Shown piece after piece: positions 15,662-57,451 of a DNA stretch of 64,000 nt. Each line of letters starts with the position of its first letter. The first letter of the stretch is position 1. The stretch is from the NCBI GenBank assembly GCA_050864255.1, contig JBOWAX010000005.1, positions 27,906 through 91,905 on the forward strand, read 5' to 3'. The notes below the pieces were generated by a model that had not been told where the DNA came from, ran no database searches, and saw nothing but the letters and a program-made list of their open reading frames with translations. The stretch is from Dehalogenimonas sp. GTDB taxonomy: Bacteria; Chloroflexota; Dehalococcoidia; Dehalococcoidales; Dehalococcoidaceae. The translations under genes were made by a program, and so were the position numbers.

Positions 15662-15810
15662 ATTAGTAATTCCTAATCTAATTTTTGGTTTCCTAAACAG
15701 AAACCTGCCATTGATTATTCTGTTCCGGACTCCATGTCCAATTAAGTATTCTCTTAAGTATTATTATACCCCTTTTTTGCAATACGTAATTATGATGTAA
15801 ATTAAATATT

Positions 15811-18207
15811 TTAGAAAGCCTCTTCAGGTGAATAGGCGTTTCTGAGAACTTCTGACGGTGTGGTAATGCCTTCCTGCACTTTTAACATGCCGTCTTTCAT
15901 GATGGTAACCATGCCTTCTCGGATGGATTGATGATGAATATCACTGGCGCTGCCACCCTCAAGCAGCATGCGTTTCAGTGTCTCTGAGAAATACATAATC
16001 TCATAAACACCCACCCGGCCCAGATAGCCGGTGAAAGCGCAGGATTTGCATCCTGTTCCGTAAGTAAATTTTGCCCGTTTCTCACCGGTTTCCCGCTCAT
16101 AGGCGACCTGTTCCACTACCGGAGCTTCTACCTCGTGGTTGCAGTAGGGGCAGATACGGCGCACCATACGCTGGGCAACCACACCGATGAGGGCCGATGA
16201 GATCAGGAAAGGTTCTACACCCAGATCCACCATTCTAAAGAGCACCCCGACGGTATCATTGGCATGGATGGATGACAGCACCAGGTGGCCGGTCAGAGCA
16301 GCCTGAACAGCGATATTGGCCGTTTCCGCGTCCCGGATTTCACCAACCATGATGACATCCGGATCCAAACGCAGTATGGAACGCAGTCCGGAGGCAAAGG
16401 TGATGCCGGCCTGGACATTGACTTGAATCTGGTTGATGTCCTTGAACCGGTATTCCGCCGGGTCTTCAATGGTGATGACATTGCGGCCTTTAGTATCAAT
16501 GGTGGACAGTGAGGCGTACAGCGTGGTGGTTTTACCGGCGCCGGTGGGGCCGGACACTAGAATCATACCGTAGGGTACCCGGAGCATGCTTTCATATTTG
16601 GCCAGGGTTTTTTCATTGAAGCCGAGCTGAGGTAAATGCAACAAACCACGTGATTTGTCCAGAATACGCATCACCGACATTTCACCATGGACGGTGGGCG
16701 CGGTGGCAACGCGGATATCAATGTTCCGGCCGCCGGCGACGGTAGAGAACTGTCCATCTTGCGGGTGATGATGGTCGGCAATATTTAGTGATGACAGAAT
16801 CTTGATACGGGAAATGATAGCCCGTTGGACGCTGATGGGCAGACTCATCATCTCCTGGAGACTGCCGTCAATGCGGAAGCGTACCCTCAGGCGTTCCTCA
16901 TCCGGTTCCAGGTGAATATCTGAGGCACGGGCCTTGACGGCCTCTTCAATAATCAAATTAAGCGCCTGGGCTAAAGGCGCATCCACGGCCGCGTCAACCG
17001 CCATGGATTCATCAGTGGCTTCAGAAGAGATAGAGATGCGCGATAGGAATTTATCTACTTCACCGTAGCCCTTGTAGTTGAAGTCCATGGCGTCACGGAG
17101 TGCGCTTTCGTCGGCTGGTATGGCTTTCACCCGGCGTTTGGAATAAGCAGACAAGGCTTCAATGGCCATGATGTCCGATGGATTGCACATGGCCACTTCC
17201 AAGGTAGTGCCGGTGACCTTGAGAGGCATGGCGCAATAGCGGCGGGCCATAATCTCCGGTATTAGTTTGAGGGCCTCTGGCGTGGGTGACTGGCGGAGTG
17301 CCGGTTCCTCTTTCGATGGTTTATCAGTTTTAGTCTCAGTTTTCGGCGCAGACGGACTGGGGGCGGCTGGTGTTTCCGCTTTCGGTTCTTCTAGTGTTTT
17401 GGTTGCGCTGTCAGGCTTCTTTTTTTCCTTGGGTTCCAGTTCTACTTTGAGTTGCGATGACTGCGCGGGTTCCAGTTCAATGATCTTTACCTTTTGGCTC
17501 TCGGCAAATTTTTGGGCTTCCGGTGAAAGAGGTGCCGAAGTGGCGATGAATTTAGCCCCCACCCGGGTATCGTAAGCCTTGGTGTCAAATACAGAAATTT
17601 CCTCCAGGTTAACCATGGGAATATTATCGAAGATATCAATGCCCAGGCTGTGCTCCCGGGAGCCGTTCTGCCGTGCCAAGAGGTCAAAAGTATGTTCTAC
17701 TCCGCTGCGGCCGGACATAATTGCATGTTCTTCTACCTTGTAACCGGTTTTTTTCAGCGCTTCAATCAGCTCCGGTTTTCCGATGAACTTAAGCGGTTGT
17801 CCCAGTGCCGGAGCCTCGGCAGGGGGCAGGTCATTTTGGGTGAATAAGGCGGCAAGCTCCCCTTCATCAAATATTTGGACCTTCTGGCTGTCGGCGAATC
17901 CCTGTGCCTGGCGGGCCATTTTGGATGGCAGGATGACCACTCGTTCGTTGATGCCGGTGTCATAAGTTTTATTGGCAAAGGTGAAAATCGCTGATTCTGA
18001 ATCAGATTGGTCAGTCAGTCCGGTCAGGATGGCAAAAGCGATAGTGCGTTGAGTGAATCCATCGTTGCGTCGGCCCAGGATGTCAAAGGTGTGTTCCAAT
18101 CCGGAGCGGCCTCTAAGCGCCGCCTTCTCGGTGACTTCATAGCCCTGACCGCGCAGATAGGCTGACAGTCCGGCGGCGATATTTTTTTCGGCGGTGGATA
18201 CCGGCAT
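15811..18207 (-). CDS. pilB: Type IV pilus assembly ATPase PilB/GspE with a ~300-aa N-terminal extension
   Basis: The C-terminal part has a GSPII-N domain, Walker A GPTGAGKTT, the Asp/His boxes and the tetracysteine CPYC...CKSC. The N-terminus has two copies of a ~105-aa module (GRSGLEHTFDIL / GRSGVEHTFDLL) followed by a P/E/K/T-rich linker. Confidence 0.9.
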   Translation of the reverse strand: MPVSTAEKNIAAGLSAYLRGQGYEVTEKAALRGRSGLEHTFDILGRRNDGFTQRTIAFAILTGLTDQSDSESAIFTFANKTYDTGINERVVILPSKMARQAQGFADSQKVQIFDEGELAALFTQNDLPPAEAPALGQPLKFIGKPELIEALKKTGYKVEEHAIMSGRSGVEHTFDLLARQNGSREHSLGIDIFDNIPMVNLEEISVFDTKAYDTRVGAKFIATSAPLSPEAQKFAESQKVKIIELEPAQSSQLKVELEPKEKKKPDSATKTLEEPKAETPAAPSPSAPKTETKTDKPSKEEPALRQSPTPEALKLIPEIMARRYCAMPLKVTGTTLEVAMCNPSDIMAIEALSAYSKRRVKAIPADESALRDAMDFNYKGYGEVDKFLSRISISSEATDESMAVDAAVDAPLAQALNLIIEEAVKARASDIHLEPDEERLRVRFRIDGSLQEMMSLPISVQRAIISRIKILSSLNIADHHHPQDGQFSTVAGGRNIDIRVATAPTVHGEMSVMRILDKSRGLLHLPQLGFNEKTLAKYESMLRVPYGMILVSGPTGAGKTTTLYASLSTIDTKGRNVITIEDPAEYRFKDINQIQVNVQAGITFASGLRSILRLDPDVIMVGEIRDAETANIAVQAALTGHLVLSSIHANDTVGVLFRMVDLGVEPFLISSALIGVVAQRMVRRICPYCNHEVEAPVVEQVAYERETGEKRAKFTYGTGCKSCAFTGYLGRVGVYEIMYFSETLKRMLLEGGSASDIHHQSIREGMVTIMKDGMLKVQEGITTPSEVLRNAYSPEEAF

Positions 18208-18286
18208 TATTTATTCCCCTTACAACGAGTTAAACATATAATCTAAGCTAGTTCAAACAATAATATTGTGGTTAGCCAACGTTATT

Positions 18287-18985
18287 CTACCCGGCCTTTT
18301 CCGGGGCTTTATCCTGACCTAATGGTATATACCCCCGGCGGATGGCCAGCACGGCAGCATGGGCACGGTCATTGGCATTGAGTTTGCGAAGGATGGCCGA
18401 GACGTGATTCTTGATGGTCTGTTCGCTTATTTTCAGTTCAGTGGCAATCTGTTTGTTAGTCAGACCGTCGGTCACGCGGATAAGGATCTGGCGTTCCCGC
18501 TGGGTCAGCGGCGTGACCACTTCCAGCCCATCGTCCTCAGTCAATTCCTGGAAGTTTTTCAGCACGCGGTGGGCGATATTGGGTTTGAGCAGGCTTTCAT
18601 TAATCGGGTACTCCCCACGTGAGGCGCGCTGGATGGTTTCCAGCAGTTGTTCCGGTGTGGAACTTTTCTTGACGCAGGCAACCGCGGCGGAACGGATGAC
18701 ATCAAAAAGCTCGGCGTCATTAGGATCCGGTGAAAGGATAATCACCCGGATGTTGGGAAACAGCCGTACCACCTTCCTGCCCAACTCCAGTCCGTTTTGA
18801 GCCGTTAGATCAGAGCCCAGTAAGACCACATCCGGCATGGTGGCTTCAATTTTGTCCAGCGGCGCATCGGAGGGGTCACATTCAATAATCTCATATTCCG
18901 GTCTGCTGCCAAGGGCGAGGGCGACACCGGAACGGAAGAACGGTTGCTCATCACAGACCATGATTCTGGTCTTGTTTATATTCAC
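18287..18985 (-). CDS. NarL/LuxR-family response regulator with an atypical receiver
   Basis: REC plus a C-terminal LuxR HTH (LTQRERQILIRVTDGLTNKQIA). At the expected phospho-acceptor position the sequence reads PDVVLLGSDL (Gly, with an Asp two residues later). Confidence 0.85.
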   Translation of the reverse strand: MNINKTRIMVCDEQPFFRSGVALALGSRPEYEIIECDPSDAPLDKIEATMPDVVLLGSDLTAQNGLELGRKVVRLFPNIRVIILSPDPNDAELFDVIRSAAVACVKKSSTPEQLLETIQRASRGEYPINESLLKPNIAHRVLKNFQELTEDDGLEVVTPLTQRERQILIRVTDGLTNKQIATELKISEQTIKNHVSAILRKLNANDRAHAAVLAIRRGYIPLGQDKAPEKAG

Positions 18986-18987
18986 GT

Positions 18988-19227
18988 CTATTCTCCTTGT
19001 TCCCCAGAGCCGGAGGCACCGTTGCCCTTATTGTGATGCCCGGCCAGGAAAGCGTCAATATCCTCGCGGCGGAAGCGCCGGTCACCACGGGGGCCCAACT
19101 GGTATGATTTGAGCGTGCCCTGGTTGCTCCAACGCCTGACGGTATTTATATGGACGTTGAGAATGACGGCTACTTCGTTGCTTGTCAGCATCGGCGTTAC
19201 CGCGGACCGGTTAAATTCCTGCACCAT
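18988..19227 (-). CDS. Small excisionase/MerR-type helix-turn-helix protein
   Basis: LTSNEVAVILNVHINTVRRWSNQG...RRFRREDIDAF is present. The gene is 2 nt upstream of the regulator gene. Confidence 0.7.
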   Translation of the reverse strand: MVQEFNRSAVTPMLTSNEVAVILNVHINTVRRWSNQGTLKSYQLGPRGDRRFRREDIDAFLAGHHNKGNGASGSGEQGE

Positions 19228-19398
19228 ATGTATTCACACCTTCCTTTACCTTACTAAATAACACCAAATAATACTATACATCAACCTTGAGTTATATACA
19301 AGACCCCAATTAGTACCAAAATTTAAGTACCTTAGTCATATTCCAGTCGCGCTGTCTATCTGATTGCGTAAACGCTGAAACAAGGGCATAATCAGGAT

Positions 19399-20413: not shown

Positions 20414-21607
20414 TTATTCAGCCGGGCTGACGGTCACTGAGTCCAGCACGAAGATATTGTCCTTGTAACTGACTTCAACCACGCCGGGTAAACCCCGGAG
20501 GGTGTCATGGAACAGCATGGTTCGTTCCAGTGTCAGTTTAATGGTGGTGACGTGCCCGGAACCCGACACGGCGTTCAGACGGCATCCCTCGGCAGCCATC
20601 AGTTCTTCCTTGATAACGGCAATCGCTGACGCACTGAAACTATTCAATTTCAGCGTATAAATACCGGGTGCCGTTTCCCCTGTTGAGATGGTCTCAGTTT
20701 CCGGGATGGATGGTTCGGTTGTTTCAGCAGGTTCCGGAGCGGCTACTGGTTGTGGGGCGGGCAAAACAGGGGGTTTCCCCGCTTCTTTACTAGAGCGTTT
20801 CTCAACTTCAGCTTGTTCTTTAGCTTCCTGTGCCTGGCGCTCTTTGTCCAGTTTGGCCTGAATCTCGGCCTCTTTTTTAGCGCGCTTTTCAGCCTCGGCC
20901 TGTTCTTTAGCTTCCTGTGCCTGGCGCTCTTTGTCCAGTTTGGCCTGAATCTCGGCCTCTTTTTTAGCGCGCTTTTCGGCTTCAGCCTGTTCTTTGGCGG
21001 CGAGTTCGGCAGCGGCCTTGGCTTCTGCTTCTTCGCGGGCTTTGGCTTTAGCCTGTTCCCGGGCTTCTTTTTCCAAACGTTGTTTTTCTAGTTTGGCCTG
21101 GATTTCAGCTTCTTTTTGGGCACGTTTATCAGCTTCGGCCTGTTCCCGGGCTTCTTTTTCCAAACGTTGTTTTTCTAGTTTGGCCTGGATTTCAGCTTCT
21201 TTTTGGGCACGTTTATCAGCTTCGGCCTGTTCCCGGGCTTCTTTTTCCAAACGTTGTTTTTCTAATTTGGCCTGGACTGCCGCTTCTTTTTGGGCTTGTT
21301 TATCCGCTTCTGCTTTCAATCGGGCTTCATGTTCGGCCTGACGGCGGGCTTCTTCAGCCTCTCTGGCTTGTTGTTTTGCCAGCTCTTTCCGTTCCTTTTC
21401 CGACAATTCGGCAGGAGCTATTTTGGCATCAACAACCTGAGGTACTGCTTGTTTTAAGATTTTGGATTCCCCGGCTGATTCGCTTTCCTTTTCAGCCCTG
21501 AGTTTACGTTCAATCTCACCCGCCTCCAGTGCGTCACGGCGCTGTCTTTCAGCGGCCAGCCTTTCGGCTTCCTTTCGGATGCGCTCCTCAATGCTGCGTT
21601 CGTCCAT
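20414..21607 (-). CDS. E/K/A/Q-rich coiled-coil protein with 29-aa tandem repeats and a ~95-aa globular C-terminal domain
   Basis: EKQRLEKEAREQAEADKRAQKEAEIQAKL occurs three times and DKERQAQEAKEQAEAEKRAKKEAEIQAKL twice. No signal peptide or TM segment is visible. Confidence 0.8.
   Translation of the reverse strand: MDERSIEERIRKEAERLAAERQRRDALEAGEIERKLRAEKESESAGESKILKQAVPQVVDAKIAPAELSEKERKELAKQQAREAEEARRQAEHEARLKAEADKQAQKEAAVQAKLEKQRLEKEAREQAEADKRAQKEAEIQAKLEKQRLEKEAREQAEADKRAQKEAEIQAKLEKQRLEKEAREQAKAKAREEAEAKAAAELAAKEQAEAEKRAKKEAEIQAKLDKERQAQEAKEQAEAEKRAKKEAEIQAKLDKERQAQEAKEQAEVEKRSSKEAGKPPVLPAPQPVAAPEPAETTEPSIPETETISTGETAPGIYTLKLNSFSASAIAVIKEELMAAEGCRLNAVSGSGHVTTIKLTLERTMLFHDTLRGLPGVVEVSYKDNIFVLDSVTVSPAE
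20816..21316. repeat. In-frame 87-bp tandem repeat array (two sub-families) inside the coiled-coil gene
   Basis: Unit starts are at 20816, 20903 and 20990, and at 21056, 21143 and 21230. All are exactly 87 bp apart. Confidence 0.9.
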
Positions 21608-24937: not shown

Positions 24938-24951
24938 ACTCCGGTTACCGT

Positions 24952-25024
24952 GCCCCCATCGTCTAGTGGACTAGGACAACGGCCTTTCACGCCGTCAACA
25001 GGGATTCGAATTCCCTTGGGGGTA
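24952..25024 (+). tRNA. tRNA-Glu (anticodon TTC), no encoded CCA
   Basis: Hand-folded cloverleaf. The acceptor stem GCCCCCA pairs with TGGGGGT. The anticodon stem is CGGC/GCCG with loop CTTTCAC. The T arm is AGGGA-TTCGAAT-TCCCT and the discriminator is A. Confidence 0.9.
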
Positions 25025-25143
25025 TTCTAATTTCTTCCCCGTTTGGAATCTAATGATTCTGTGAATCAAAACTTCCCTGCCAATTTCCGAAGACTCAGCA
25101 GCTCGAGGGTGGAGTTACGCAAAGAAGGAATTATCTCGATCAA

Positions 25144-26334
25144 TTATGGTAGGCACTCATGCTTAGAGCCCGCTATTTTTGGTAGCTCAACCTCAATTGT
25201 TGTTCCCAAACCCACCTTTGATTTAATATTGAAGTCTCCTCCAAGCGTCATCACGCGTTCTCTCATACTATTGAGACCATTATTTTTATTAGACAAACTG
25301 CCATCAAAGCCTTTGCCTTCATCTTTGATGGTCAATGATATCCAATCGCCAGAATCCCGAATAGACACCTTCACCTCGTGGACTCCGGAATAGCGTATTG
25401 CGTTCGTGAGTGCCTCTTGGACAACCCGATAAATCGCCAACTTGAGTTCATTATCGAGTTTGATGCCTTGAAGGTCACACTGGAAGTCAATCTTTAATTG
25501 AGCTGTAGATTGCAGATTATCAAAAAGTGCCCGCAGTGTCGTCTCCAAACCCAATAGCGTCAACATGGAAGGATACAGGCCTGCTGAAAGATTACGGACA
25601 GAAGAAATAATTCGGCCGACGTGTTCTGAAGCTTTTTTGATTCCCTCTTTACAAGCTTCTGTTTGGCAGGCCATCTGGGTGTCGATTATTAATTTAAGGA
25701 CGGTTAATTGCTGGCCTATCTCATCATGCAGTTCCATGGAGATGTTCCGTCGTTCCTCTTCTTGAACGCTCAACAGTTTTCGGGATAGGTCACTTAGTTC
25801 AGTCCGTTGGCCGTTAAGCTTGTTCAGCATTTCCAATCGCTCAGTTACGTCCATGGCGGTAAGCAGGAAGTTTTCCCCATTTAGGCCGGTTCTGATAGCG
25901 GTGATTGCCACTTGAATCTCGGGATGATTATCTGGCTTGATAGCCACATCCACCGATTGTTGCGGGCGGTTTTGGCTGTGGATTTTGTTTAAATATATAT
26001 GAAATCTATCTTGGTCACCGGGAGCGATAAATCGTGTGAAACGTTCGTGATATAAATTGGTCGGGTTGCTGTTGAGCAGTAAGGCTCCTGAAGAATTTAT
26101 GAGGGTTATCATATGGTTTGAGTCAATGACCAGATAAGCCAATGGGGCTAAATTGAATAACTGACGATACAATTCCCGTGATTCTTCTAGTGCAGTTTCA
26201 GTCTCCCGCAGCATTTCATTCTGCATTTCCAACTCGGCCTGATATATCCGGAGTTCGGCCTCCAGTTTGTCGTACTTGTAGGCATGTTTTAACTGGGGTG
26301 CTGAATTTTCGGGCAACTTTTTGTCACGTGTCAT
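25144..26334 (-). CDS. Sensor histidine kinase (coiled coil, PAS, HisKA_3, HATPase_c)
   Basis: The H-box ELHDEIGQQLTVLK is typical of NarX/DegS-type kinases. ATPase N and G boxes are present (EALTNAIRYS, DEGKGF, GLNSMRERV). Confidence 0.88.
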   Translation of the reverse strand: MTRDKKLPENSAPQLKHAYKYDKLEAELRIYQAELEMQNEMLRETETALEESRELYRQLFNLAPLAYLVIDSNHMITLINSSGALLLNSNPTNLYHERFTRFIAPGDQDRFHIYLNKIHSQNRPQQSVDVAIKPDNHPEIQVAITAIRTGLNGENFLLTAMDVTERLEMLNKLNGQRTELSDLSRKLLSVQEEERRNISMELHDEIGQQLTVLKLIIDTQMACQTEACKEGIKKASEHVGRIISSVRNLSAGLYPSMLTLLGLETTLRALFDNLQSTAQLKIDFQCDLQGIKLDNELKLAIYRVVQEALTNAIRYSGVHEVKVSIRDSGDWISLTIKDEGKGFDGSLSNKNNGLNSMRERVMTLGGDFNIKSKVGLGTTIEVELPKIAGSKHECLP

Positions 26335-26358: not shown

Positions 26359-29283
26359 TTATTTTTTGTCAGCCGCTTCATCGGTAACATCTTCTATTGC
26401 CATGAGAATGTGGGGGGACCCGGTGGTTTTCAACAGCAACCGGGCGTTTATACGCATTTTTATTTTGCCGATGCCGGGGAAATTCAAGCTGATCGTGTAA
26501 TCCTCAAAACTACCCCCATCTTTCGAAATATTTTTGAGGCGTTTCCGGAGTTTGGGGACATCCCATTCCCGATTACCCAAATGATATATGCGTTGTCCCA
26601 CGGTGTCCTTGGGCGAAAGCTTGAATAATTGATAGAATGATTTGTTGGCCGAAACTACCCTCAAATCGCCATCTAATACAACCATTGATTCGCGAACAGT
26701 GTCTAACACATTCTTGGCTTGCTCGAGCGCTTTTTGGGTTAAAATACTTTCGTTAACATCCAAAACGGTAACTACCAGTCCGGCGATAGCTTTGTCAACG
26801 GTGCGGTAAGGTCTGATGCGGATCTGATAGGAGATACCTTCCTTGTCGCAAATCGTTTTCTCCAGGGGTACCAGTTTGTTGAGTACCTCCTTGGCATCCA
26901 GGAAAAAGTCTTCGTAAACAAGCATTGAGCTAATATCTTTCAATGGTCTGCCGATATCTGAGGTAATCATAGGGTAAAGTTTGATCGCGGCGCGCGAAAA
27001 GCTCTTGATACGCAAGTCTCGGTCTAGGAAAATCGCGGCGATATCGGTGTTATCAAGGAGGTTTCGGAGGTCATCAGATGACCGGGCAAGGTCTTCAATG
27101 CGGTTACGATCCTCAGCGTTTACTGATAGCAGCTCTTCGTTTAATGATCTTAACTCTTCGCGCGAGGTTTCCAGTTCTTCATTGGTGCTCTGCAATTCTT
27201 CATTAGATGACTGCAATTCCTCATTGGATACCCTGAGGTCTTCATTGGCCTTGGCCAGTTCCACCACATTAGCTTCCAAAGAATCCTGGGCAAATTTCAG
27301 TTCTTGTTTTAGGTTATCAACTCCGGAAACTGACTCTGTTGTGGCTTTGCTTGCCCCTTTTTGGCGGCTCTTGCTCTTCTTCTTGCCCAGATCGTGAAAG
27401 ATTACCAATATATTCTTACTCTTCAGGGAAATACGTCTGGCCTCCAGGGAAACCAGCCATGGTGTGCCTCCTTGCATCACGGTGATCGGCTCAGAGACCT
27501 GAGGTTTCTCCGGACTGTTTAGTGCTGCATGAATGATAATGGTCAGACGAGAACGTAGTTCATCCCGGGCCATATCCAAAGCATTCCATCTTGTATCGCC
27601 GGAGGCTAGACGAAGGTATTTTCCAGTATCTCCGGAGACGTAGAGTAGGTTGGCATTTTCATCAAGTAGAATGTAGGCGGGGGTATATTCATTGGCGACA
27701 ATATGCTTGGCCAGATCGGTAACATCACCGGTGGGTTGTGTTGGACTAGTAGTTTCTTTGGGGAACGATACAGGCGTTTTTGCAAAGATATGGGTGTTAA
27801 AAGGCGGTACCAGATGTGATGGTGAAGGTATATCAGTTTTCTTGTATAGCTTATGCTTTTGATCAGTCGCGGTGAAAAGCTCACTGTTTCCGACCGTTTC
27901 TGATTGACCCAAAAATAATAGACCTCTGGGGTTCAGAGAGTAGTGCATAAGCGCAAAAAGCTTCTTTTGTACTGCCGGATTTAGGTAGATGAGCAAGTTG
28001 CGGCAACAAATAATATCAAGATGGGTAAAGGGGGGGTCGGTCAGCACGTTATGATCGGCAAATACGATCGAATCACGGAGTTTTGGGTTAACTTGATAGG
28101 AATCATTGTGATGGATAAAAAACTTCTTCAGTCTGGTCGCGCTGACCTGAGAGGTGATAGATTCAGGATAAACGCCAAGGCGGGCGATGCTTACCGCCCG
28201 GTGGTTCAGATCGGTGGCAAATATCTGAAATGTCGAAACACTCTGGAGGTAATCTAGGATTTCCCGAAGTATAATGGTGATTGAGTAAGCTTCTTCCCCC
28301 GTTGAACATCCGATAACCCAAATCCGTAATGGTTTAGTCGCGGTACTCCCAGAGATATATTTGGTAAGATCATTCTTTAAAGACTCCCATGATTCGGTAT
28401 CCCGGAAAAAAGATGTGACATTGATTAAGATTTCCTGGAGCAGGGTCTCGGCTTCGTGTTTTTGTTCTTTAATCAGTTTTACATAATCGGATAATCTGGC
28501 AAGGTGATTTACTGTCATGCGCCTTTCGATGCGCCGGCTTATTGTTCCCATTTTATACATGGAGAAATCATATCCGGTATGATTCTGCAGAAGATAGAGT
28601 ATTTTAGAATAATAACTGCTTGTTAATTCCGGGTCCGACTCCTCAAACGTATTATAAGGATGGCGATAGAAATCCATCAGCTGTTTATACATCCCATCGA
28701 CAGGTACAACAGCATCGCTGAAAGCGGCCGCACTGGCAGGCATACCCTCAAACTTGGCACTGGCGGGATCCTGCGCTATCGTAAGACCGGCCGCTGCCTT
28801 GATGGCCTTTGTGCCGATGGTACCGTCTGTTCCGGTTCCCGACATAACAATACCGACAGCCCTCGGCCCAAGATCGTCAGCCATAGAAACAAAAAGCTCA
28901 TCAATGGGGTGGCGTAATAAACGGTCAGTCATTGTGGACAGCCGCAATTGATTATTGATGACACTGCAGGTAAAACCGGGAGGAACGACATATACGGTAT
29001 TGATTTGAGGAACTGTACCGTCTTTCACTTCAAGAACAGGCATCCGCGAGTGTTTGGAAATAATTTGAGGCAGACTGCTCTTATGGTCTGGGTCTAGATG
29101 CTGCATGACAACAAACGCCATACCGTTGTCACCCGGCATGGTTTCAAAAAAATCATTCAGTGCTTCAAGACCGCCTGCAGAGGCACCTATTCCAACGACG
29201 GGAATACCTGCCGATGCCTCTTTCTTATCCCCAGCAGGTGGTTTAGCAGCAACGGATTTCTGTGTTTTTTTTGTATTTGCCAT
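26359..29283 (-). CDS. CheB-like methylesterase / CheR-like methyltransferase fusion with coiled coil and C-terminal PAS domains
   Basis: Motifs are VVGIGASAGGLEAL (CheB-type), LRIWVIGCSTGEEAYS (CheR SAM site), an LxxELxxxNEEL heptad region, and PAS-like segments. Confidence 0.88.
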   Translation of the reverse strand: MANTKKTQKSVAAKPPAGDKKEASAGIPVVGIGASAGGLEALNDFFETMPGDNGMAFVVMQHLDPDHKSSLPQIISKHSRMPVLEVKDGTVPQINTVYVVPPGFTCSVINNQLRLSTMTDRLLRHPIDELFVSMADDLGPRAVGIVMSGTGTDGTIGTKAIKAAAGLTIAQDPASAKFEGMPASAAAFSDAVVPVDGMYKQLMDFYRHPYNTFEESDPELTSSYYSKILYLLQNHTGYDFSMYKMGTISRRIERRMTVNHLARLSDYVKLIKEQKHEAETLLQEILINVTSFFRDTESWESLKNDLTKYISGSTATKPLRIWVIGCSTGEEAYSITIILREILDYLQSVSTFQIFATDLNHRAVSIARLGVYPESITSQVSATRLKKFFIHHNDSYQVNPKLRDSIVFADHNVLTDPPFTHLDIICCRNLLIYLNPAVQKKLFALMHYSLNPRGLLFLGQSETVGNSELFTATDQKHKLYKKTDIPSPSHLVPPFNTHIFAKTPVSFPKETTSPTQPTGDVTDLAKHIVANEYTPAYILLDENANLLYVSGDTGKYLRLASGDTRWNALDMARDELRSRLTIIIHAALNSPEKPQVSEPITVMQGGTPWLVSLEARRISLKSKNILVIFHDLGKKKSKSRQKGASKATTESVSGVDNLKQELKFAQDSLEANVVELAKANEDLRVSNEELQSSNEELQSTNEELETSREELRSLNEELLSVNAEDRNRIEDLARSSDDLRNLLDNTDIAAIFLDRDLRIKSFSRAAIKLYPMITSDIGRPLKDISSMLVYEDFFLDAKEVLNKLVPLEKTICDKEGISYQIRIRPYRTVDKAIAGLVVTVLDVNESILTQKALEQAKNVLDTVRESMVVLDGDLRVVSANKSFYQLFKLSPKDTVGQRIYHLGNREWDVPKLRKRLKNISKDGGSFEDYTISLNFPGIGKIKMRINARLLLKTTGSPHILMAIEDVTDEAADKK

Positions 29284-30845: not shown

Positions 30846-31535
30846 TTAATTACCGAAGTCAGATGCCGCAACACTGACATCCTGCTTTGAATCTGGAAAC
30901 CTGACCTGTTCATGTTCCTGGGTCAATTTAACCAAATCAGACCTTGAAGAGACGCCAAGTTTGCGTTTTACATTAGCCCGATGCACCTCGACTGTCCGCC
31001 GGCTGATAAATAGCCTTTTGGCAATATCTTCATTTTTGGTACCCGCGGCAATCAGATGCAAAATTTCCCGTTCTCTGTGGCTCAATGTTTCATAAGGGTC
31101 TTTAAGGGATAATGGCATCTTGCGGGTGTAAATATCAATAGCCCTTTCAGATAAGGAAGGGCTGAGGAAATGGTGATCGGTTGAGACCTCAGAGATGGCG
31201 CGCAACAAGTCTTCGGAAGAGGCATCTTTGAGGACGTAGCCTTTAGCTCCGGCCCGTAACGCTTCCACAACATAATTCTCATCGTCGTACATTGACAGTA
31301 CGATAACTTTAATAGCTGGGTTGGTTTTCAATATGTGTCTGGTTACTTCCAGCCCGTTCATGTTGCCCATCATTAAATCAACAATAAGTATGTCCGGTTT
31401 GACTTTTTCAAGCAGGCTTATGGCTTCCAGGCCGTCTGAGGCCTCACCCAGAATCTGATAACCATGCCCTTCAAGCATGGTCCTGATACCTTGCCGTACC
31501 AGATTGTGGTCGTCAACGAGAACAATACCAACCAT
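30846..31535 (-). CDS. NarL/LuxR-family response regulator
   Basis: MVGIVLVDDH..., PDILIVDLMM (canonical Asp), and a LuxR HTH (LSHREREILHLIAAGTKNEDIA). The start at 31535 has SD GGGGGA. The ORF track extends it to 31595. Confidence 0.88.
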   Translation of the reverse strand: MVGIVLVDDHNLVRQGIRTMLEGHGYQILGEASDGLEAISLLEKVKPDILIVDLMMGNMNGLEVTRHILKTNPAIKVIVLSMYDDENYVVEALRAGAKGYVLKDASSEDLLRAISEVSTDHHFLSPSLSERAIDIYTRKMPLSLKDPYETLSHREREILHLIAAGTKNEDIAKRLFISRRTVEVHRANVKRKLGVSSRSDLVKLTQEHEQVRFPDSKQDVSVAASDFGN

Positions 31536-31675
31536 CTTGTTTTCCCCCAAATTTAATCCCCGAATAATTTTATTGGTGCCGTCTTCCTGCACCACCAGAC
31601 ACTAGTATTCTACAACCACTTTTTCTACCGTCACTGTAAGTAAACACGGTAATTCACTCGGTTTCGTAATAAAAT

Positions 31676-31691
31676 TAGGTAATATTACCTA
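31676..31691. promoter_or_regulatory. Perfect 16-bp palindrome TAGGTAATATTACCTA in a divergent intergenic region (candidate operator)
   Basis: Read directly from the sequence. It lies between the regulator gene (30846-31535, minus) and the dehydratase gene (31830, plus). A further TAGGTAAT sits at 31754-31761. Confidence 0.5.
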
Positions 31692-31829
31692 GGAAACCCG
31701 AATGTATAACCTGAATCGGAGGGTTGGTATTTGGTGAATCTTGGTGAGATATGTAGGTAATAGTCACACTAGCCCGGTATATCCATACACCATACACTTA
31801 ACGCAATACCTAGCAAGGGAGGTCTCGAC

Positions 31830-32837
31830 ATGGCTGAAAAATGTAGCGGCGAAGCGCCCAACTATTGGACCGGAAAACGATGTCTGGTTACCGGGGGATA
31901 CGGCTTCGGTGGCGGACATCTTTGTGAGCAGTTGTTGGAAAAGGGAGCCCAGGTCTACGTTTATGATCGTGAAGCACCCGGTGATTCCTATCTGGCTCTT
32001 TCAGGACTGGTTGATCAGGTTGTCTACATACCGGGGGATACCCGGGACTTAGACCTGGTAAAAACTACCCTGGCGCGATTTGAAATCAATACTGTTTTTC
32101 ACTTAGCTGCCCAACCCATTGTTCCGGTATGTAATTCCTGTCCCTATGAATCCCTCTCAATAAACGTATTGGGCACGTACTCAGTCTTGGAAGCTGTCAG
32201 GACATGCGTGCCGTCCCCTGTGTTAATTTTTGCCTCCAGCGGCGCCTATTACGGGACAACATTTGAAAAGAACCCAATCCCGGAGGATTATCCACCGCAG
32301 GCAGCAGCCAATATATATGCCCCCTCCAAAGTCGCCGGAGACTTTGCTGTACGTTCTTATGCCAAAACTTATGGCCTAAAAGCGGCGGTTTGTCGCTTTA
32401 TCAATACTTACGGTCCCGGCAACCGGAACTCAAGTACCATCGTCCCAAAGGCTATCGGTAAACTAATTCGGGGGGAACCGTATGACTTCGGTGATCGGGA
32501 TGACGGCACGTCGGCTTTTGACTATCTAAATATCGGGGATATGACCCGGGGTTATCTGGCAGTCGGAGAGAATATTGCTCAAATATCCGGAGAGGCCTTC
32601 AATTTCGGCGGCGGATACCCCATTTCGGTTCATGATCTTGTCTGCCTCATTAGCCGTCTTTACGACGGGGTGGAGCGGGAACCCATATTTCACGGGCGGA
32701 AAAAGGAAAAACAGGTTCGTAAATGTTTGGATACCGGTAAGGCTCGCCAACAATTGGGTTGGCAGCCGAGCATAAGTTTGGAAGATGGGCTCAAGGAGAC
32801 AATAAGATGGTACAAAGAACACCAGAACTGTCTTTAA
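31830..32837 (+). CDS. NAD-dependent sugar-nucleotide 4,6-dehydratase/epimerase (CDP-glucose 4,6-dehydratase-like)
   Basis: YWTGKRCLVTGGYGFGGGHL resembles the N-terminus of CDP-glucose 4,6-dehydratases. The catalytic YAPSK is present. SD AGGGAGG precedes the start. Confidence 0.75.
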   Translation: MAEKCSGEAPNYWTGKRCLVTGGYGFGGGHLCEQLLEKGAQVYVYDREAPGDSYLALSGLVDQVVYIPGDTRDLDLVKTTLARFEINTVFHLAAQPIVPVCNSCPYESLSINVLGTYSVLEAVRTCVPSPVLIFASSGAYYGTTFEKNPIPEDYPPQAAANIYAPSKVAGDFAVRSYAKTYGLKAAVCRFINTYGPGNRNSSTIVPKAIGKLIRGEPYDFGDRDDGTSAFDYLNIGDMTRGYLAVGENIAQISGEAFNFGGGYPISVHDLVCLISRLYDGVEREPIFHGRKKEKQVRKCLDTGKARQQLGWQPSISLEDGLKETIRWYKEHQNCL

Positions 32838-35175: not shown

Positions 35176-35510
35176 AATACATTCAAATCCTGCTTATTTT
35201 GGGTGCGGCGTTGAGAAAATACTCCGCGCCGATAAGTATAGACTATCATTGGTTTCAACGTGTCGCAATCGGTAACATACCGAAATAGTTGACTTTGACC
35301 ATTGGTCCGAACCCCAATTCGGAAGAGTTGTAAATAGGCCAACAACTCAAATCGCAACCTTCAAAATCCTGTGAAAAAGACTTATGCCGGGCGATTTCTA
35401 TAATTAGTTAGGTATTTAGCCATTACGCAAATAGGTAAATTACTTATGGTGATACGCAATATTTCCGGCTAATATGGAATCAGGTGGTTTGACTCTGGTA
35501 CAGGGGAATA

Positions 35511-39258: not shown

Positions 39259-39966
39259 TTATTGTGGTTTGTTGTTGGATATAGTCTGGGGATTTTTGTT
39301 ATCCAAGGATGTGGCAATAGCCGGGCTTGTGCCCCGTTCTATGGCATAACGCAGAAGTTCACTCTGGTTAGCGAACCCCAGTTTTTGCATGACATTGGCT
39401 CGGTGAGAGTCAACCGTCCGAACACTGATAAAAAGCCTCTTGGCTATCTCTGTTCTGGATAACCCCTGGGCGGTCAAGAATAGCGTCTGTCTTTCTCGGG
39501 AGCTGAGTCGTTCGTAAGGGTCATCCTGTGCCTTTCGTGAAGCTTCCCGCATATAACCATTGAAGGCCAGTTCTGAAAGGCTTTTGCTGAGATAGTGCCT
39601 TCCCTGGGTCACCTCATTGATGGCCTCAAAAAGGTCGGTGGATAAAGCGTCCTTGAGGACATATCCTAATACCCCGCTACGCAATGCACTTTGCACATAG
39701 TTTTCATTATTGTGCATTGTTAAAATAATGACTGCGGTTCCTAAACGTTGTTTGATGACCTCTTGTCCCAATTCAATGCCGGAAATATCAGGCAGAATCA
39801 GATCTGTGATTAAAACGTTTGGGCGTAACTTCCGGGCTAGAATAAGTGACTCGTTACCGGTTCCGGACTCACCGACAATTTTGAACATTGGCTCTGATTC
39901 CAGCATGCAGCGCAACGCGGCCCGCACCAAATGATGATCATCACATAATTGGATAGTAATACTCAT
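39259..39966 (-). CDS. NarL/LuxR-family response regulator
   Basis: ITIQLCDDHH, NVLITDLILPDISG (canonical Asp), and a LuxR HTH (LSSRERQTLFLTAQGLSRTEIA). Confidence 0.88.
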   Translation of the reverse strand: MSITIQLCDDHHLVRAALRCMLESEPMFKIVGESGTGNESLILARKLRPNVLITDLILPDISGIELGQEVIKQRLGTAVIILTMHNNENYVQSALRSGVLGYVLKDALSTDLFEAINEVTQGRHYLSKSLSELAFNGYMREASRKAQDDPYERLSSRERQTLFLTAQGLSRTEIAKRLFISVRTVDSHRANVMQKLGFANQSELLRYAIERGTSPAIATSLDNKNPQTISNNKPQ

Positions 39967-40312
39967 AAGTTCTACCTATGCATGCAAAATGACATTAACA
40001 TCCTTAGTCCACAATACAACTAATCTATCCGAAATTCAAGCCCATTTTTACATTATTTTCACTACCAATTGTTAGACATGTTGGTTTTTCTACGTACTTT
40101 ACAGGTCTAACATAGGTGCCGGGGGTCTGGTTACGTATGGTAAGGTCTGAATAATTACGTAAATCCTTGCAGACATATAGGTAATTTGCGGATTTTGCGG
40201 ATGGAGCAGGCTGAGTATCATGGGTCGTAGTGTGAAATAGGTGAACGCTGGTGTTTGACCTTTTCGCCAAGAATTTAAAAATCTGGTAATGAATCGAACT
40301 GGAGTTGATGAG

Positions 40313-46309: not shown

Positions 46310-46320
46310 TAGTTCAATGT

Positions 46321-46352
46321 ACGCGACGGGGCTTATTGATGCCCCGTCGCGT
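46321..46352 (+). terminator. Hairpin terminator after the 44720-46309 gene
   Basis: 12-bp stem ACGCGACGGGGC / GCCCCGTCGCGT with an 8-nt loop, followed by TTCTGG (weak T-tract). Confidence 0.5.
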
Positions 46353-46562
46353 TTCTGGAAGACAAGTATTGTTAAGACTACCTAATTCCCTTACCACAGA
46401 TTACGCAATCGCTTGCTGCTATTTAAGTAATCTACGGATTACATAATATGCTGTATTTTATTATCATCATAGTAGGCTAATGTAGCAATAGTAGATTGAG
46501 TCACGGTTTGCTGTTGTTTCAGCAAATTAGCTTTTTATCAGTAGTTTACACAAAGGAACAAG

Positions 46563-50036: not shown

Positions 50037-50729
50037 TCATTCCGTGTTTTGAAACAGGCCTCGTTGGCGAGCCAGTTCAATAAGCTGTTGCTGGAAGTTT
50101 TGCAAACCCAGCTTACGCATCATGTTTGCCCGATGGAGCTCAACGGTGCGCCGGCTAATGGACAATTTTTCAGCAATCGCTTCATTGTTAAGCCCATGCA
50201 CTACATACTCGAAAATTTCAAACTCACGATGGGTTAATGTTTGCACGATGTCACCATTAGAAAAGCCAGAAAGAGGATAATCAACCGGTAGCCTTGATGG
50301 CCTATCAGCCTCTATGTACTTGCGGCTGTCAGCTACATCGTGTACCACCTTAATTAATTTTGCCTCAATATCATTCCAATAAATCACTGATTTAGCTCCG
50401 GAACGCAATGCTTCCTCAGTGGTGAAATTGCCGGTACGGGATAGTACAATGCAAGCTACCTGGGGGTATTTTTTGTGGATTAGACGTACAATCTCAAGAT
50501 CTAAGTTTCCACCAACAGTATAGACCAGTATATCCGGGTTGGTTGCAGCCAGCCTGGCGATGGCTTTTAAGTTATTTCCGGTTTCGCCCTTTACAAAAAA
50601 ATCATCATCGGATTCGAGAAATGCGCGAATATACTGTCTTGATTCAAAGTTTTCATCCGCCAGGACTATAGAAATTTGTCGCACGAGATTCGTTCCCTTC
50701 TCAAAAGCTGGAATCCCTGATGCTTTCAT
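50037..50729 (-). CDS. LuxR-type regulator with a degenerate (pseudo-)receiver domain
   Basis: LuxR HTH LTHREFEIFEYVVHGLNNEAIA. The receiver-like N-terminus reads PDILVYTVGGN where the phospho-acceptor Asp is expected, and it lacks the conserved Lys. The ATG overlaps the glmS stop (ATGA). An alternative GTG start lies at 50684. Confidence 0.8.
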   Translation of the reverse strand: MKASGIPAFEKGTNLVRQISIVLADENFESRQYIRAFLESDDDFFVKGETGNNLKAIARLAATNPDILVYTVGGNLDLEIVRLIHKKYPQVACIVLSRTGNFTTEEALRSGAKSVIYWNDIEAKLIKVVHDVADSRKYIEADRPSRLPVDYPLSGFSNGDIVQTLTHREFEIFEYVVHGLNNEAIAEKLSISRRTVELHRANMMRKLGLQNFQQQLIELARQRGLFQNTE

Positions 50730-52498: not shown

Positions 52499-52829
52499 TA
52501 CGACTGCTCCTCATTCATGTAACTCTATTATAAAGAGTAAACTGGAGGTCAACATCGGTAAGATTGCCCTGTGTTCCAAGAACTAATACGTATTTATCAA
52601 TTAGGGAATTTGAATATCGTAAGTAGTTACCTACAAAGTAAGAAAGAATCGTGGTTGGAGTTTTTGGTATTGTGGAAAGTTACTCTTTTATGAGGCCTTA
52701 AGGCTGATTGGATGCCAGGGATTTTCAAGAATGCCTGGGATTGGATTTGAGCGTGATATATAGGTGACGGAAAGGAAGAAGATACTGGAGGATTGGTTCG
52801 CATGAGTGAATGGCTATTCTAATGTGAGA

Positions 52830-53000
52830 TTAATGGCCGGTGGATATCCTGTCAAACAGGTAGTAAACGGCATTCCAAAGGGCGCAGGTTGACCAGGCTG
52901 AAAGGTACCAGATATATCGGTCGGTAAGGCCTTTATGGTTGAAGTACATAGTCAGTATCTGTTTGGTGCTCAGGCCTTTGTCTTTAATCATATAGCTCAT
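52830..53000 (-). CDS. Possible 56-aa W/Y-rich small protein
   Basis: ATG at 53000, 3 nt after the stop of the DUF1508-like gene. Translation: MSYMIKDKGLSTKQILTMYFNHKGLTDRYIWYLSAWSTCALWNAVYYLFDRISTGH. It is below the ORF-track cut-off and I recognise no family. Confidence 0.25.
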   Translation of the reverse strand: MSYMIKDKGLSTKQILTMYFNHKGLTDRYIWYLSAWSTCALWNAVYYLFDRISTGH

Positions 53001-53003
53001 CAC

Positions 53004-53246
53004 TTAACCTGCGTAATGGCCGTAATCGGGGTTTGATGAAAGTTGACTGGCTTTGGCGTAGATAGCATCAAAATGGTAGCTCCTTCTACTGATAGCGATT
53101 ATCTCTTCAGCGGATCTCATTCCAAGTAATACCTCACTCTTGGTGTCGTACGATTCGGATATGCCGATAATTGTGCCGTTTGTGGCAATAAGGGCGAACC
53201 TGAAATCACCGGGTTTGTCTGTGTATAACTGGAACTTGGCTTTCAT
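53004..53246 (-). CDS. YegP/DUF1508-like small protein
   Basis: FQLYTDKPGDFRFALIATNGTIIGISESYDTKSE matches the YegP repeat pattern. Confidence 0.65.
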   Translation of the reverse strand: MKAKFQLYTDKPGDFRFALIATNGTIIGISESYDTKSEVLLGMRSAEEIIAISRRSYHFDAIYAKASQLSSNPDYGHYAG

Positions 53247-53366
53247 GATTTACTCCTATATTAACTTCGTTCTAATCTTGTTTGGTTGATGCTGCCGCCT
53301 TGATTGTTGTGGTCTGTTCAAAGGCGGCAGCATCAGGCGCTTTAGTCTTTCATTTGATAACGGTGT

Positions 53367-55427: not shown

Positions 55428-55643
55428 TGATTTTCCTTTCGCCTCCTTATTGAACTACTTAGTAGTATATGGAGCTGCGAAAGGGCTGTACATACGTAAT
55501 TACTTGTTATTACACCTATATAGTACTAAGGTAATAGGGCAAGTACTTAAGTAATATATATTACATGTAGGATTTAGTAGGTATGCAATAGTCAGGATAA
55601 GGCACAAAGGGGCAGTCGAAAGTTTTGACACATACTTACGGCT

Positions 55644-55681
55644 GAAAAAAACAGTGAAGGGCGGTTAGCCCTTCACTGTTT
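55644..55681 (-). terminator. Rho-independent terminator of the 55703-56995 gene
   Basis: 13-14-bp stem AACAGTGAAGGGC / GCCCTTCACTGTT with loop GGTTA, followed on the minus strand by a T-run. Confidence 0.8.
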
Positions 55682-55702
55682 ACAAGAGGCCGTAAAGCCG
55701 CT

Positions 55703-56995
55703 CTATGGTGCTTTTAGTGTCCACCAGCCGAGGGATTTATCAAGATTACCTGATACCGTATAACCAATGGTATGTAAATTGGGGAAGTCGATTGTAGTTG
55801 CCGCAACCCAAACGACCTGTCCAACCGTAAGGCCTGAAACTGTTGTCGTCGTAATCCTGATGGAGAAACTGAATTCATTACTTCCTCCGCTGGGGGTTGG
55901 AGCACTGGCTATCACAGCGGTTATATTACCATATGAAAGGACAGGAGTCGTGGGGTTTTTGAGCACCCACCAGCCATATGAATTATCCATGTTGCCGGTA
56001 ATGGTGGAGCCAATTGTTCTCAATGAGGGAAAGTCAGTCGTTGTTGCTGCAATCCAGACTGTTTGACCAGCCGTCAAACCAGCATTCGCAGATGTCATAA
56101 TCCTGACGGACAGACTGTACTCGTTGCTTGCCCCTGTGGGTATAGGGACACTTGTTACCATAGCAGTGGTATTGCCCAAAGAAGAATATGAAGGAGTATA
56201 CGATGGTGTTGGTGCCGGAGCGGACGGTGTGTAGGGTGAAATCAAACTGACGTAACTGGGTAGCCAGTAAGCCAGGCTGGCATAGGCCGGTGTGACATAG
56301 GCGGCTAACACACCTTTGCTCCAGGCGCCCTGGGTCAGGTTTGCAGCAGTGGTAGCATCGTACACACCCTCACGCAATAGCCATGTCCGGCTAGCCCATT
56401 TTTGCTGACTGGCTGTTAATGAAGCATTGGACCACTGTTCAGAGCTGTTGATATAGTCGCAGTAGGTCATTAATTGGTCAGACCAGCTATTCTGCCCGGT
56501 ATTGAAAACAATCTTGAGACCTAGGCTGCGTGCTTTTGCTGATATTTGTTGCAGATAGCTCCAGTTAGGTGTAGTCCATATCCCTTCACTTACCTGGTCC
56601 AGGAAGATACCATAAGCGCCTGCAGCGGCAGCTGCGGTTATGTAGTTGAGGTTGGATTGTAGGTCAACGGGGATACCTCCCCGGCGTGTTCCCTCGTAGC
56701 CGCCGTCGATATATTCAAAATACTTGATACCGGCGGCTGTAAACTTGCTTATATTGGCGTTACCACGCCATGGTCCAGCCGGGCTGTTACTTACCAGGAA
56801 GGTTGGATTGGCATTAATAATAGCTGCTTCGGTAGCGGGGGAATGCCAACCGTAGTAGATCATGTTGATGCTAACCGTGGTGGCCGCACTCAGTTTATTA
56901 GTGGTAGCTGGTATGCCCAGTGTAGCCAAACTCAGAATTAACGATATGCCGATAATGATTAGTCGATTTAAATATTTGCGTAATTGCAAACTCAT
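55703..56995 (-). CDS. Secreted Sph3/spherulin-4-like putative glycoside hydrolase with two 'GWW' modules
   Basis: Signal peptide. Barrel motifs MIYYGWH, SNSPAGPWRG, GIKYFEYIDGGY and GIFLDQVSE. Two C-terminal modules end in GWWVLK and GWWTLK. Confidence 0.8.
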   Translation of the reverse strand: MSLQLRKYLNRLIIIGISLILSLATLGIPATTNKLSAATTVSINMIYYGWHSPATEAAIINANPTFLVSNSPAGPWRGNANISKFTAAGIKYFEYIDGGYEGTRRGGIPVDLQSNLNYITAAAAAGAYGIFLDQVSEGIWTTPNWSYLQQISAKARSLGLKIVFNTGQNSWSDQLMTYCDYINSSEQWSNASLTASQQKWASRTWLLREGVYDATTAANLTQGAWSKGVLAAYVTPAYASLAYWLPSYVSLISPYTPSAPAPTPSYTPSYSSLGNTTAMVTSVPIPTGASNEYSLSVRIMTSANAGLTAGQTVWIAATTTDFPSLRTIGSTITGNMDNSYGWWVLKNPTTPVLSYGNITAVIASAPTPSGGSNEFSFSIRITTTTVSGLTVGQVVWVAATTIDFPNLHTIGYTVSGNLDKSLGWWTLKAP

Positions 56996-57451
56996 CCTTT
57001 TCTCCTTTTATTGTTATTGTTTATTCAATTATTCGGTATATACCGGTAATATTAAGTATATTGAAAAAGGCTTGCCAACAGGATAACAAATAATATCCGT
57101 CAAGCCTTGAAAAAATGGAAAAGCTGAGTTTTTATGTGATCGGCGCTTTCTTAAATTTCATCAATTTGGTTTTTCGATTCTTAGTCAAGGTACGTATATT
57201 TTGCGGGGAGTTTATCATCCGGCAATTGAACTGTAAATACGTAAATACTAGAAAAATGGGTAAAAATACTCGGTGGAATTGGGCAAAACCACTAACAGCG
57301 CATGATTTGAACAGAGAGAACAAAACGTAATATATAAACTGATTTTGATTACTAAGTATATCTATCCAGCTTAATACGTAAAATTACTGATGGTGATGTA
57401 TTCGGGAATTGCTATAATGAGTTTGGTAGACGAAGAGACTAGGGGCAAGAA

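Follow-up and report, generated by a model that had tools for sequence, protein, structure and literature searches.

A convergent repeat upstream of polysaccharide and surface-protein genes in Dehalogenimonas, and its candidate regulators

The subject of this article is a short word, TA[ACG]GTA(A/T)(T/A), that recurs in the spacers between genes in a 64,000-nt stretch of DNA from Dehalogenimonas sp. (GenBank assembly GCA_050864255.1, contig JBOWAX010000005.1, positions 27,906 to 91,905 of the forward strand), which we call the window and whose own numbering is used throughout. The motif is real, statistically strong and evolutionarily conserved, and we think that it is probably the half-site of an operator for one or more of three response regulators encoded close by, RR2, RR3 and RR4, its predicted binders. 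What this furnishes is a concrete candidate regulon with a 14-16 bp operator, three candidate regulators, one candidate kinase and about eight promoters, which would cover a Pel-like polysaccharide, its amino-sugar supply (GlmS, PGM and epimerases) and very large surface proteins with probable roles in attachment and biofilm formation.

One word in the spacers

A previous sequence-only reading of the same DNA had described two motifs, TACGYAA and TWARGTAWT, and these are variants of a single word: when the spacer copies of TA.GTA are aligned, position 3 allows A, G or C, and the next three positions favour A/T, T and T. Every site that it listed is present, although several of its coordinates were shifted by one. 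TACGTAA or TACGCAA lies at 15783, 35424, 35453, 40156, 46402, 55493, 57238 and 57375, ACGTAAT at 57325, TACGTA at 40091, 40132, 52587 and 57191, WAGGTAAT at 31676, 31754, 40178 and 55528 (with TAGGTAAA at 35432) and TTAAGTAWT at 15742, 15754, 46423 and 55547; what was given as a further TTAAGTA(A/T)T at 57052 reads TTAAGTATA and falls outside that pattern. The two regular arrays that it described are also there, namely two copies 29 bp apart upstream of the pelF-like gene (35424 and 35453) and three copies of TACGTA within 70 bp (40091-40161). Absent from its list are seven copies of TACGYAA in coding sequence, mostly TACGCAA, at 6532, 15216, 27009, 36808, 37822, 39678 and 56976. We considered TACGCAA as a variant of the motif and set it aside: it is enriched in spacers (5 against 0.62 expected), but it has a similar frequency in genes and is not conserved in the closest relative, and it is probably no part of the motif.

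How unusual is the word? Our null was a third-order Markov model trained on the window's own spacers, with both strands counted over 6.4 kb of spacers and 56.5 kb of coding sequence. TAVGTAW occurs 35 times in the spacers where 8.2 copies are expected (z 8.5), a count reached in 0 of 1000 simulations, and 22 times in all of the coding sequence, while under the same model the two words originally described also exceed expectation in spacers (TACGYAA, 12 against 2.05; TWARGTAWT, 7 against 1.43). The excess over a spacer background on which the earlier claim hung is thus borne out, at about four times the expected number; the count of coding versus non-coding copies in the 64-kb window favours the spacers too, and an exhaustive scan of spacer 6-mers, made with no motif in mind, recovers the same word, with TAGGTA, TACGTA and TAAGTA ranking 1-3 among 1825 words.

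The copies are also very unevenly spread, since eight 5' spacers, chosen post hoc once the hits were known, hold 33 hexamers in 2.5 kb (13 per kb), whereas the remaining 26 spacers hold 3 in 3.7 kb (0.8 per kb) and the density in coding sequence is 0.53 per kb. The eight spacers are 15662-15810, 31596-31829, 35176-35510, 39967-40288, 46310-46562, 52499-53003, 55428-55702 and 56996-57451. Among the 26 motif-poor spacers are the large one upstream of mraZ, the tRNA spacer and all convergent or 3' spacers inside the low-G+C block, the possible island discussed below, where the convergent, terminator-type spacers contain no hexamer. Sites are thus concentrated in promoter regions, and not in coding sequence or 3' spacers, as would be expected for an operator of the NarL/FixJ family. 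In an Rfam scan tRNA-Glu was the sole match, and the motif-rich spacers fit no described RNA family.

Half-sites that face each other

The arrangement of the hexamers was counted over the window and eight relatives together. Exact convergent pairs of the form TAVGTA-N-TACBTA occur six times with two nucleotides between the halves (N2), twice with three (N3), twice with four (N4) and once with none (N0), examples in the relatives being TAAGTAAATACTTA, TAAGTAGCTACTTA and TAGGTATACCTA. At spacings N2-4 there are 10 such pairs against 1.6 expected when hexamers are placed at random within their own clusters (0 of 5000 permutations), and the same within-cluster permutation predicts 1.6 everted pairs where none is observed; closely spaced everted or direct pairs hardly occur at all. 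Because the hexamers pair convergently and not everted, we read the motif as a dimer operator, and pairing in this one orientation is what we take to be the signature of a dimeric helix-turn-helix DNA-binding protein. An inverted repeat of 6-7 bp half-sites totalling about 14-20 bp is, moreover, the form that a NarL/FixJ operator takes, and the pairs have that form.

Conservation in related gene clusters

The closest homologue of RR3 (68% identity) is encoded on a metagenomic contig, our locus L004, whose regulators are 65-68% identical to those of the window and whose genes run in the same order (PelG, PelF, Spherulin4, aminotransferase, epimerase, RR2, PGM, RR3), with spacers that are again rich in hexamers. 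On pairwise alignment the orthologous spacers are about 65% identical overall, and the longest identical runs are the motif sites themselves. Upstream of pelF, TTAGGTA and TAGGTAA.TTAC.TAT are kept, and TAGGTAAGTTACGTA in L004 aligns to the window's dimer at 35432..35446; between RR2 and the epimerase gene, TAGGTAA (the left half of the palindrome at 31676) and TAGGTAATAGT are kept. The idea that the sites would be conserved in relatives therefore holds at orthologous positions in L004, with the exception of TACGCAA.

Further afield, a metagenome scan with a PelF alignment yielded about 16 loci, their PelF proteins being 45-63% identical, and most of the loci with enough flank have pelG and an epimerase gene as neighbours. 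Ten loci (L001, L004 and L011-L018) were pooled as a replicate from which the window was left out, and a blind 6-mer test of their spacers places TAAGTA and TAGGTA at ranks 1-2 of 2011 (Bonferroni P 0.004 and 0.013), with a density of 4.6 hexamers per kb for spacers and 0.9 for genes. Seven PelF orthologue loci have the block ATACGAATATACTTA in common shortly upstream of the gene. At L011 the N-terminus of a NarL-type regulator is encoded divergently from an epimerase gene with eight hexamers between them, and at L013 a glmS-regulator pair has two TACGTA sites upstream. A scan of genome contigs with the PelF-like protein gave three loci, none of them close, and an exact look-up of one window protein gave no match.

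Across 73 kb of core Dehalogenimonas sequence (five loci, from genomes of cultured strains or near-complete assemblies) the spacers have 0.6 hexamers per kb, equal to the genes, and distant RR3 homologues (48-49% identity, in Dehalogenimonas WBC-2 and in a high-GC metagenome-assembled genome, or MAG) have no motif cluster nearby; since these homologues lack it, the motif follows the gene cluster and not the protein subfamily. As judged from these loci, it travels with a subset of such clusters and is neither genus-wide nor a property of AT-rich DNA.

Could the word nevertheless be a by-product of composition or ancestry, reflecting an AT-rich acquired island, the avoidance of stop codons in genes or the relics of mobile elements? 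It is true that G+C is lower in the island (0.44-0.50) and that words containing TAA or TAG are disfavoured in genes. We think this extremely unlikely, however, given that the observed count is about four times what a model fitted to those very spacers predicts, that other spacers of the window and the core Dehalogenimonas loci lack the word, that the sites stand as conserved islands within diverged spacers, and that over-representation is limited to the convergent orientation. A mobile-element origin was considered in its own right and rejected, repeat searches having found no long element common to the spacers.

Sites at individual promoters

At five promoters of the window the proximal half-site of a dimer ends 22-24 nt upstream of a -10-like hexamer. 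Upstream of the pelF-like gene, the dimer TAGGTAAATTACTTA (N3, 35432..35446, plus strand) stands 23 nt from TAATAT (35470-35475) and 64 nt from the gene start, and a single TAGGTA at 35409..35414 (plus; TTAGGTA) is the one that is conserved in L004. The dimer TAGGTAATTTGCGGA (N3, 40178..40192, plus), the proximal half of which is degenerate, sits in the promoter of the gene for a 1463-aa surface protein, 23 nt upstream of TATCAT (40216-40221), and TAAGTAATCTACGGA (N3, 46424..46438, plus) lies at the same distance from another TATCAT (46462-46467) in the promoter of the gene for a 1119-aa FN3 protein; GTAAT.T.CGGATT is common to the 40178 site and 46427. The 14-bp dimer CAAGTAATTACGTA (N2, 55493..55506, minus) is followed after 23 nt by TATACT (55469-55464) and lies 65 nt before the start of a Big_9/PKD gene, in a spacer with additional hexamers at 55544, 55548 and 55578 (within 55544..55583) that include TAAGTAATATATATTAC. 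Finally, TACGTAAAATTACTGA (N4, 57375..57390, plus) precedes TATAAT (57413-57418) by 22 nt and the epimerase gene at 57452 by 61 nt; its spacer, which separates the genes at 55703 and 57452, also carries single hexamers at 57053, 57191, 57238 and 57353 besides the ACGTAAT at 57325, and an 18-nt block, A.AATTACT.ATGGTGAT, is common to this promoter and that of pelF (35436-35453).

The remaining sites extend the picture to the regulator genes. RR2 and the epimerase gene at 31830 are divergent, and the spacer that separates them holds a perfect 16-bp palindrome, TAGGTAATATTACCTA (N4, 31676..31691), together with the island of 11 nt, TAGGTAATAGT (31754..31764, plus), that is identical in the orthologous spacer of L004, and a TACTTA hexamer (31637..31642, minus) 24 nt upstream of the -10-like TAGAAT (31612-31607, minus), which is a candidate autoregulatory site of the RR2 operon. 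With this single proximal hexamer added, six window promoters share the 22-24 nt offset. The divergent spacer between RR3 and the giant surface-protein gene holds three TACGTA hexamers (40091, 40132 and 40156) and an 8-bp palindrome, TTACGTAA, at 40155-40162. Upstream of the glmS-like gene that precedes RR4 lies the 14-bp dimer TAGGTAACTACTTA (N2, 52620..52633, minus), with an extra TACGTA at 52587.

The same layout recurs at the pelF promoter of L004, where 24 nt separate the dimer from TATATT. A composite of dimer, 22-24 nt and -10-like hexamer, looked for on both strands of the whole window, occurs at the five promoters and once, weakly, in coding sequence, and the bases at the expected -35 are a poor fit to TTGACA. 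The dimer would occupy about -36 to -50, which suggests activation of the class II type beside the -35. A different reading of the same geometry is that the motif is itself a core promoter element, the -35 or -10 box of an alternative or extracytoplasmic function (ECF) sigma factor, and the fairly constant distance of the proximal hexamer from the -10-like hexamers at six window promoters speaks for it. Boxes of this kind are directional and occur once per promoter, however, whereas the sites here lie on both strands, several to a spacer, and form perfect or near-perfect palindromes, and among those window proteins that were compared with Pfam none was a sigma factor, all of which makes this explanation very improbable.

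In two places a hexamer is found immediately downstream of the -10-like hexamer instead, at the pilC promoter (TATAAT-AA-TACTTAAGAG) and at the promoter of the RR3 orthologue in L004 (GATAAT-TACTTAGAGG), a position that would suit repression. Upstream of this last gene (L004 9870-9960) there is also a 43-bp tandem duplication, each copy of which carries GATAAT with TACTTA or TACCTA immediately after it, so that promoter and operator have been duplicated together.

Which protein might bind?

Four response regulators are encoded in the window, and all are of the REC+GerE (NarL/FixJ) type by Pfam, with DevR, VraR, NarL and RcsB as their closest solved relatives; all four genes are on the minus strand. 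RR1 (18287..18985) belongs to the core pilus locus and has the recognition helix QTIKNHVSA. RR2 (30846..31595; helix RTVEVHRAN) retains the acceptor Asp, RR3 (39259..39966; RTVDSHRAN) is divergent from the giant surface-protein gene, and RR4 (50037..50729; RTVELHRAN), a GerE protein with a weak REC match, is encoded directly downstream of the glmS-like gene. RR2, RR3 and RR4 thus have the helix RTV[ED]xHRAN in common, and the motif is found in the spacers that precede the genes for RR2 and RR3 and the glmS-like gene ahead of RR4, so that REC+GerE regulators occur in the same locus with sites in their own promoters. The sequence-only reading had associated the motifs with all four regulators, which fits RR2-4 on both of these counts and does not fit RR1, whose helix differs and whose upstream spacer carries another repeat; RR1 probably does not bind this motif.

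In our view RR2 is the best candidate for a signal-dependent binder, because its gene shares a strand with those for PGM, a CheB-CheR-PAS fusion and a PAS-HisKA_3-HATPase histidine kinase (25144..26334, minus), the last of which is, from gene order, a candidate sensor for RR2 and belongs to the HisKA_3 class that pairs with NarL-type regulators. The succession of a 974-aa CheB-CheR-PAS fusion (26359-29283) and a PAS-HisKA_3 kinase (25144-26334) is an unusual sensory input for a polysaccharide locus. RR4 is peculiar in another respect, as its acceptor Asp is replaced (VYTV), like that of its L013 counterpart (6406-7053, LFNL), where the other regulators have IVDL; glmS directly upstream of an Asp-less regulator, in the window and in L013, is a conserved pairing.

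It might also be that the operator is real and is bound by some other regulator, such as a global or island-external factor encoded outside the 64-kb window. None of our results links the motif to any one protein, the recognition helix is widespread in its subfamily and a small HTH_17 protein is encoded in the window as well, all of which speak for such a binder. On the other side, NarL-type genes adjoin motif-rich spacers in the window, L004 and L011, the glmS-regulator pair of L013 has its TACGTA sites upstream, and a 14-16 bp convergent repeat of 6-7 bp halves fits the NarL/FixJ family, so that we consider an external binder unlikely.

Several observations weigh against the proposal that RR2-4 act through this operator, and they deserve to be set out together. 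The spacing of the half-sites varies (N2, N3, N4 and once N0), which is unusual for one rigid dimer, and three pelF orthologue loci (L017, L018 and L023) have no spacer hexamers. The helix RT[VA]ExHRAN is common in the subfamily and occurs also in the WBC-2 homologue, which has no motif cluster in its 20-kb neighbourhood; being generic, it does not tie the motif to RR2-4, and the binder could be encoded beyond the window. As for the promoters, where the class II position is tentative, -10-like hexamers cover 3% of positions in these AT-rich spacers, the offset histogram of single hexamers has a small peak at 23 (5 against 1.4 expected) with similar peaks elsewhere, and a consensus scan for promoters and terminators over 31.5-46.6 kb yields no excess over shuffled sequence; promoter positions were read by hand, the consensus scan being uninformative.

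Taking both sides into account, we still favour RR2-4, and the mechanism that we propose is as follows. TA[ACG]GTA(A/T)(T/A) would be the half-site for a dimeric helix-turn-helix regulator, one or more of RR2, RR3 and RR4, with the full operator being the convergent pair TAVGTA-N2-4-TACBTA of 14-16 bp, and neighbouring single half-sites might permit cooperative binding. A dimer placed beside a poor -35 would activate transcription in the class II manner at the promoters of the pelF-like operon, the two giant surface-protein genes, the Big_9/PKD gene and the epimerase gene at 57452. Autoregulation is probable, since RR2, RR3 and the glmS-like gene ahead of RR4 have sites upstream, and the circuit would likely take its input from two proteins encoded downstream of RR2, the HisKA_3 kinase and the CheB-CheR-PAS protein. 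The binder, whether it activates or represses, and where transcription begins are what we infer from this arrangement.

One elaboration of the proposal is attractive enough to mention, namely that the half-site vocabulary is split among the three paralogous regulators by spacing, N2, N3 or N4. The spacing is N3 at pelF in both the window and L004, N4 in the regulator/epimerase spacer in both the window and L011, and N2 upstream of the glmS-like gene, and the conserved N3 and N4 hint, in a small sample, at such a code. We think it quite unlikely to be right; if it were, an island that is portable and encodes a Pel-like polymer and adhesins would bring its own multi-regulator spacing code to a genus known for organohalide respiration rather than for the regulation of biofilms.

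Comparison with known systems

One comparison is with the RcsB box of enterobacteria, TN(G/A)GAN4TC(T/C)NA, a 14-bp pseudo-palindrome defined from crystal structures and genome-wide data (PMC7913699). Like the N2 class here it is 14 bp long and is bound by a dimer of a NarL/FixJ-family response regulator, it agrees with TA[AG]GTA-NN-TAC[CT]TA at T1, R3, G4, C11, Y12 and A14, and it controls genes for capsule, exopolysaccharide and surface structures from sites that are mostly no more than 100 bp from where transcription or translation begins. The two differ in that positions 5 and 10, which are A and T in the RcsB box, are T and A in nearly all sites here, that spacings of N3 and N4 are found as well, and that a central C is tolerated (TACGTA); the host belongs to the Chloroflexota and its regulators are closer to the DevR/VraR/NarL group. 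The RcsB consensus proper (GA at 4-5, TC at 10-11) is not matched, although length and outer positions agree, and we regard the motif as a relative in kind of the RcsB box and not as an RcsB box.

Binding sites for NarL are TACYYMT heptamers arranged as 7-2-7 with the TAC ends outward. The TAC[CT]TAT subset of our sites fits this heptamer, and the two systems are alike in having several heptamers per promoter in mixed arrangements, a REC+GerE regulator and a kinase of the HisKA_3 type. The orientation is the opposite one, however, with TAC at the inner ends in all ten exact pairs (TAVGTA-N-TACBTA), so that the sites do not conform to the NarL 7-2-7 consensus, and the targets are unrelated to nitrate respiration. 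A third member of the same superfamily, the tetrahelical helix-turn-helix activator ComA of Bacillus subtilis, uses both inverted and direct arrangements of its half-sites (PMC4797271). It offers a precedent for finding a direct repeat in the pilus spacer alongside inverted repeats elsewhere, although its half-site sequence and its regulon are different. The ComA half-site is TTGCGG/CCGCAA.

In the literature searched we found neither the motif nor any Pel-like cluster of Chloroflexi described, and no paper on transcriptional regulation by these regulators in the Dehalogenimonas group. Dehalogenimonas and its relatives are slow-growing organohalide respirers that are used in bioremediation. 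The mechanism that we propose is of a standard type, and the value of the finding is practical, not conceptual; it includes the observation that the operator moves with its gene cluster across lineages.

The island and the pilus locus

The polysaccharide genes fall within a 34-kb block (about 25-59 kb) with a G+C of 0.44-0.50 against 0.52-0.58 to its left, and a tRNA-Glu gene (24951-25025) marks the left edge. The closest homologues of its proteins, from searches with RR3 and PelF only, are 66-68% identical, against 88% for PilC, and the block may be a genomic island. Its glycan genes encode a PelF-like glycosyltransferase, a PelG-like protein, a Spherulin4-like protein, three epimerases/dehydratases, an aminotransferase, PGM and a GlmS-like enzyme, and it further encodes four large repeat-rich surface proteins, RR2-4, the HisKA_3 kinase and the CheB-CheR-PAS fusion. 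The contents of 29434-58372 resemble bacterial Pel and fungal galactosaminogalactan loci (a PelF-like GT4 with DUF3492, PelG-like and Spherulin4-like proteins, epimerases, GlmS and PGM), a DUF2194 domain lies within the 1463-aa surface protein, and these contents suggest an amino-sugar-rich exopolymer.

Whether the type IV pilus genes belong to the same regulon, as the sequence-only reading proposed, is a separate question. The pilus locus (minus strand) encodes the HTH_17 protein (18988-19227), RR1 (18287-18985), PilB (15811-18207), PilC (14456-15661), two pilins, PilM/N and a PilT-like ATPase; its gene order is repeated in four Dehalogenimonas genomes, and the PilC-like protein is 88% identical to those of D. 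lykanthroporepellens BL-DC-9 and a Dehalogenimonas MAG and 79-86% identical to those of other species. The 149-nt spacer between pilB and pilC holds three hexamers and no inverted repeat (within 15743..15788: TAAGTA at 15743 and 15755, a 12-bp direct repeat, and TACGTA at 15783), with the repeats just downstream of TATAAT (15768-15763, minus). That TATAAT is conserved across Dehalogenimonas, whereas of the hexamers the closest MAG alone retains any (one exact and one near), and they are deleted in BL-DC-9 and degenerate in WBC-2 and D. formicexedens. Of the regulon once imagined, then, the polysaccharide and adhesin promoters do carry the motif, while the pilus part, with its poorly conserved hexamers and lack of an inverted repeat, looks doubtful to us. 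The pilus locus is core and the polysaccharide island seemingly accessory, and any link between them would be recent and strain-specific.

The pilus locus has a repeat of its own. In the minus-strand promoter of the HTH_17-RR1 genes (19290-19340), RGTACT is directly repeated about 8 nt apart (AGGTACTTAAATTTTGGTACTAAT) and is followed by a well-conserved TATAGT; the repeat is kept in the window, in D. lykanthroporepellens and in the Dehalogenimonas MAG, and RR1 or the HTH_17 protein may use it as an operator. AAGTAC is the fourth most enriched spacer 6-mer. The PilB-like ATPase (15811-18207) has an N-terminal Mrr_cat domain, which resembles restriction endonucleases, ahead of MshEN and T2SSE; to Mrr_cat its orthologues in L095 and L096 show only a faint match.

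Two further features were seen outside these subjects. A repeat of about 50-60 nt, CTAAT.TCTAA...AAATTCAAA.A.CAAAA...CAAAAC.GGTCAT, occurs between genes at 2986-3045, 7205-7270 and 8660-8705, outside the island; it is unrelated to the motif and has no Rfam match. An open reading frame at 20414-21607 (397 aa), which has no Pfam match, contains five to six tandem repeats of 87 nt.

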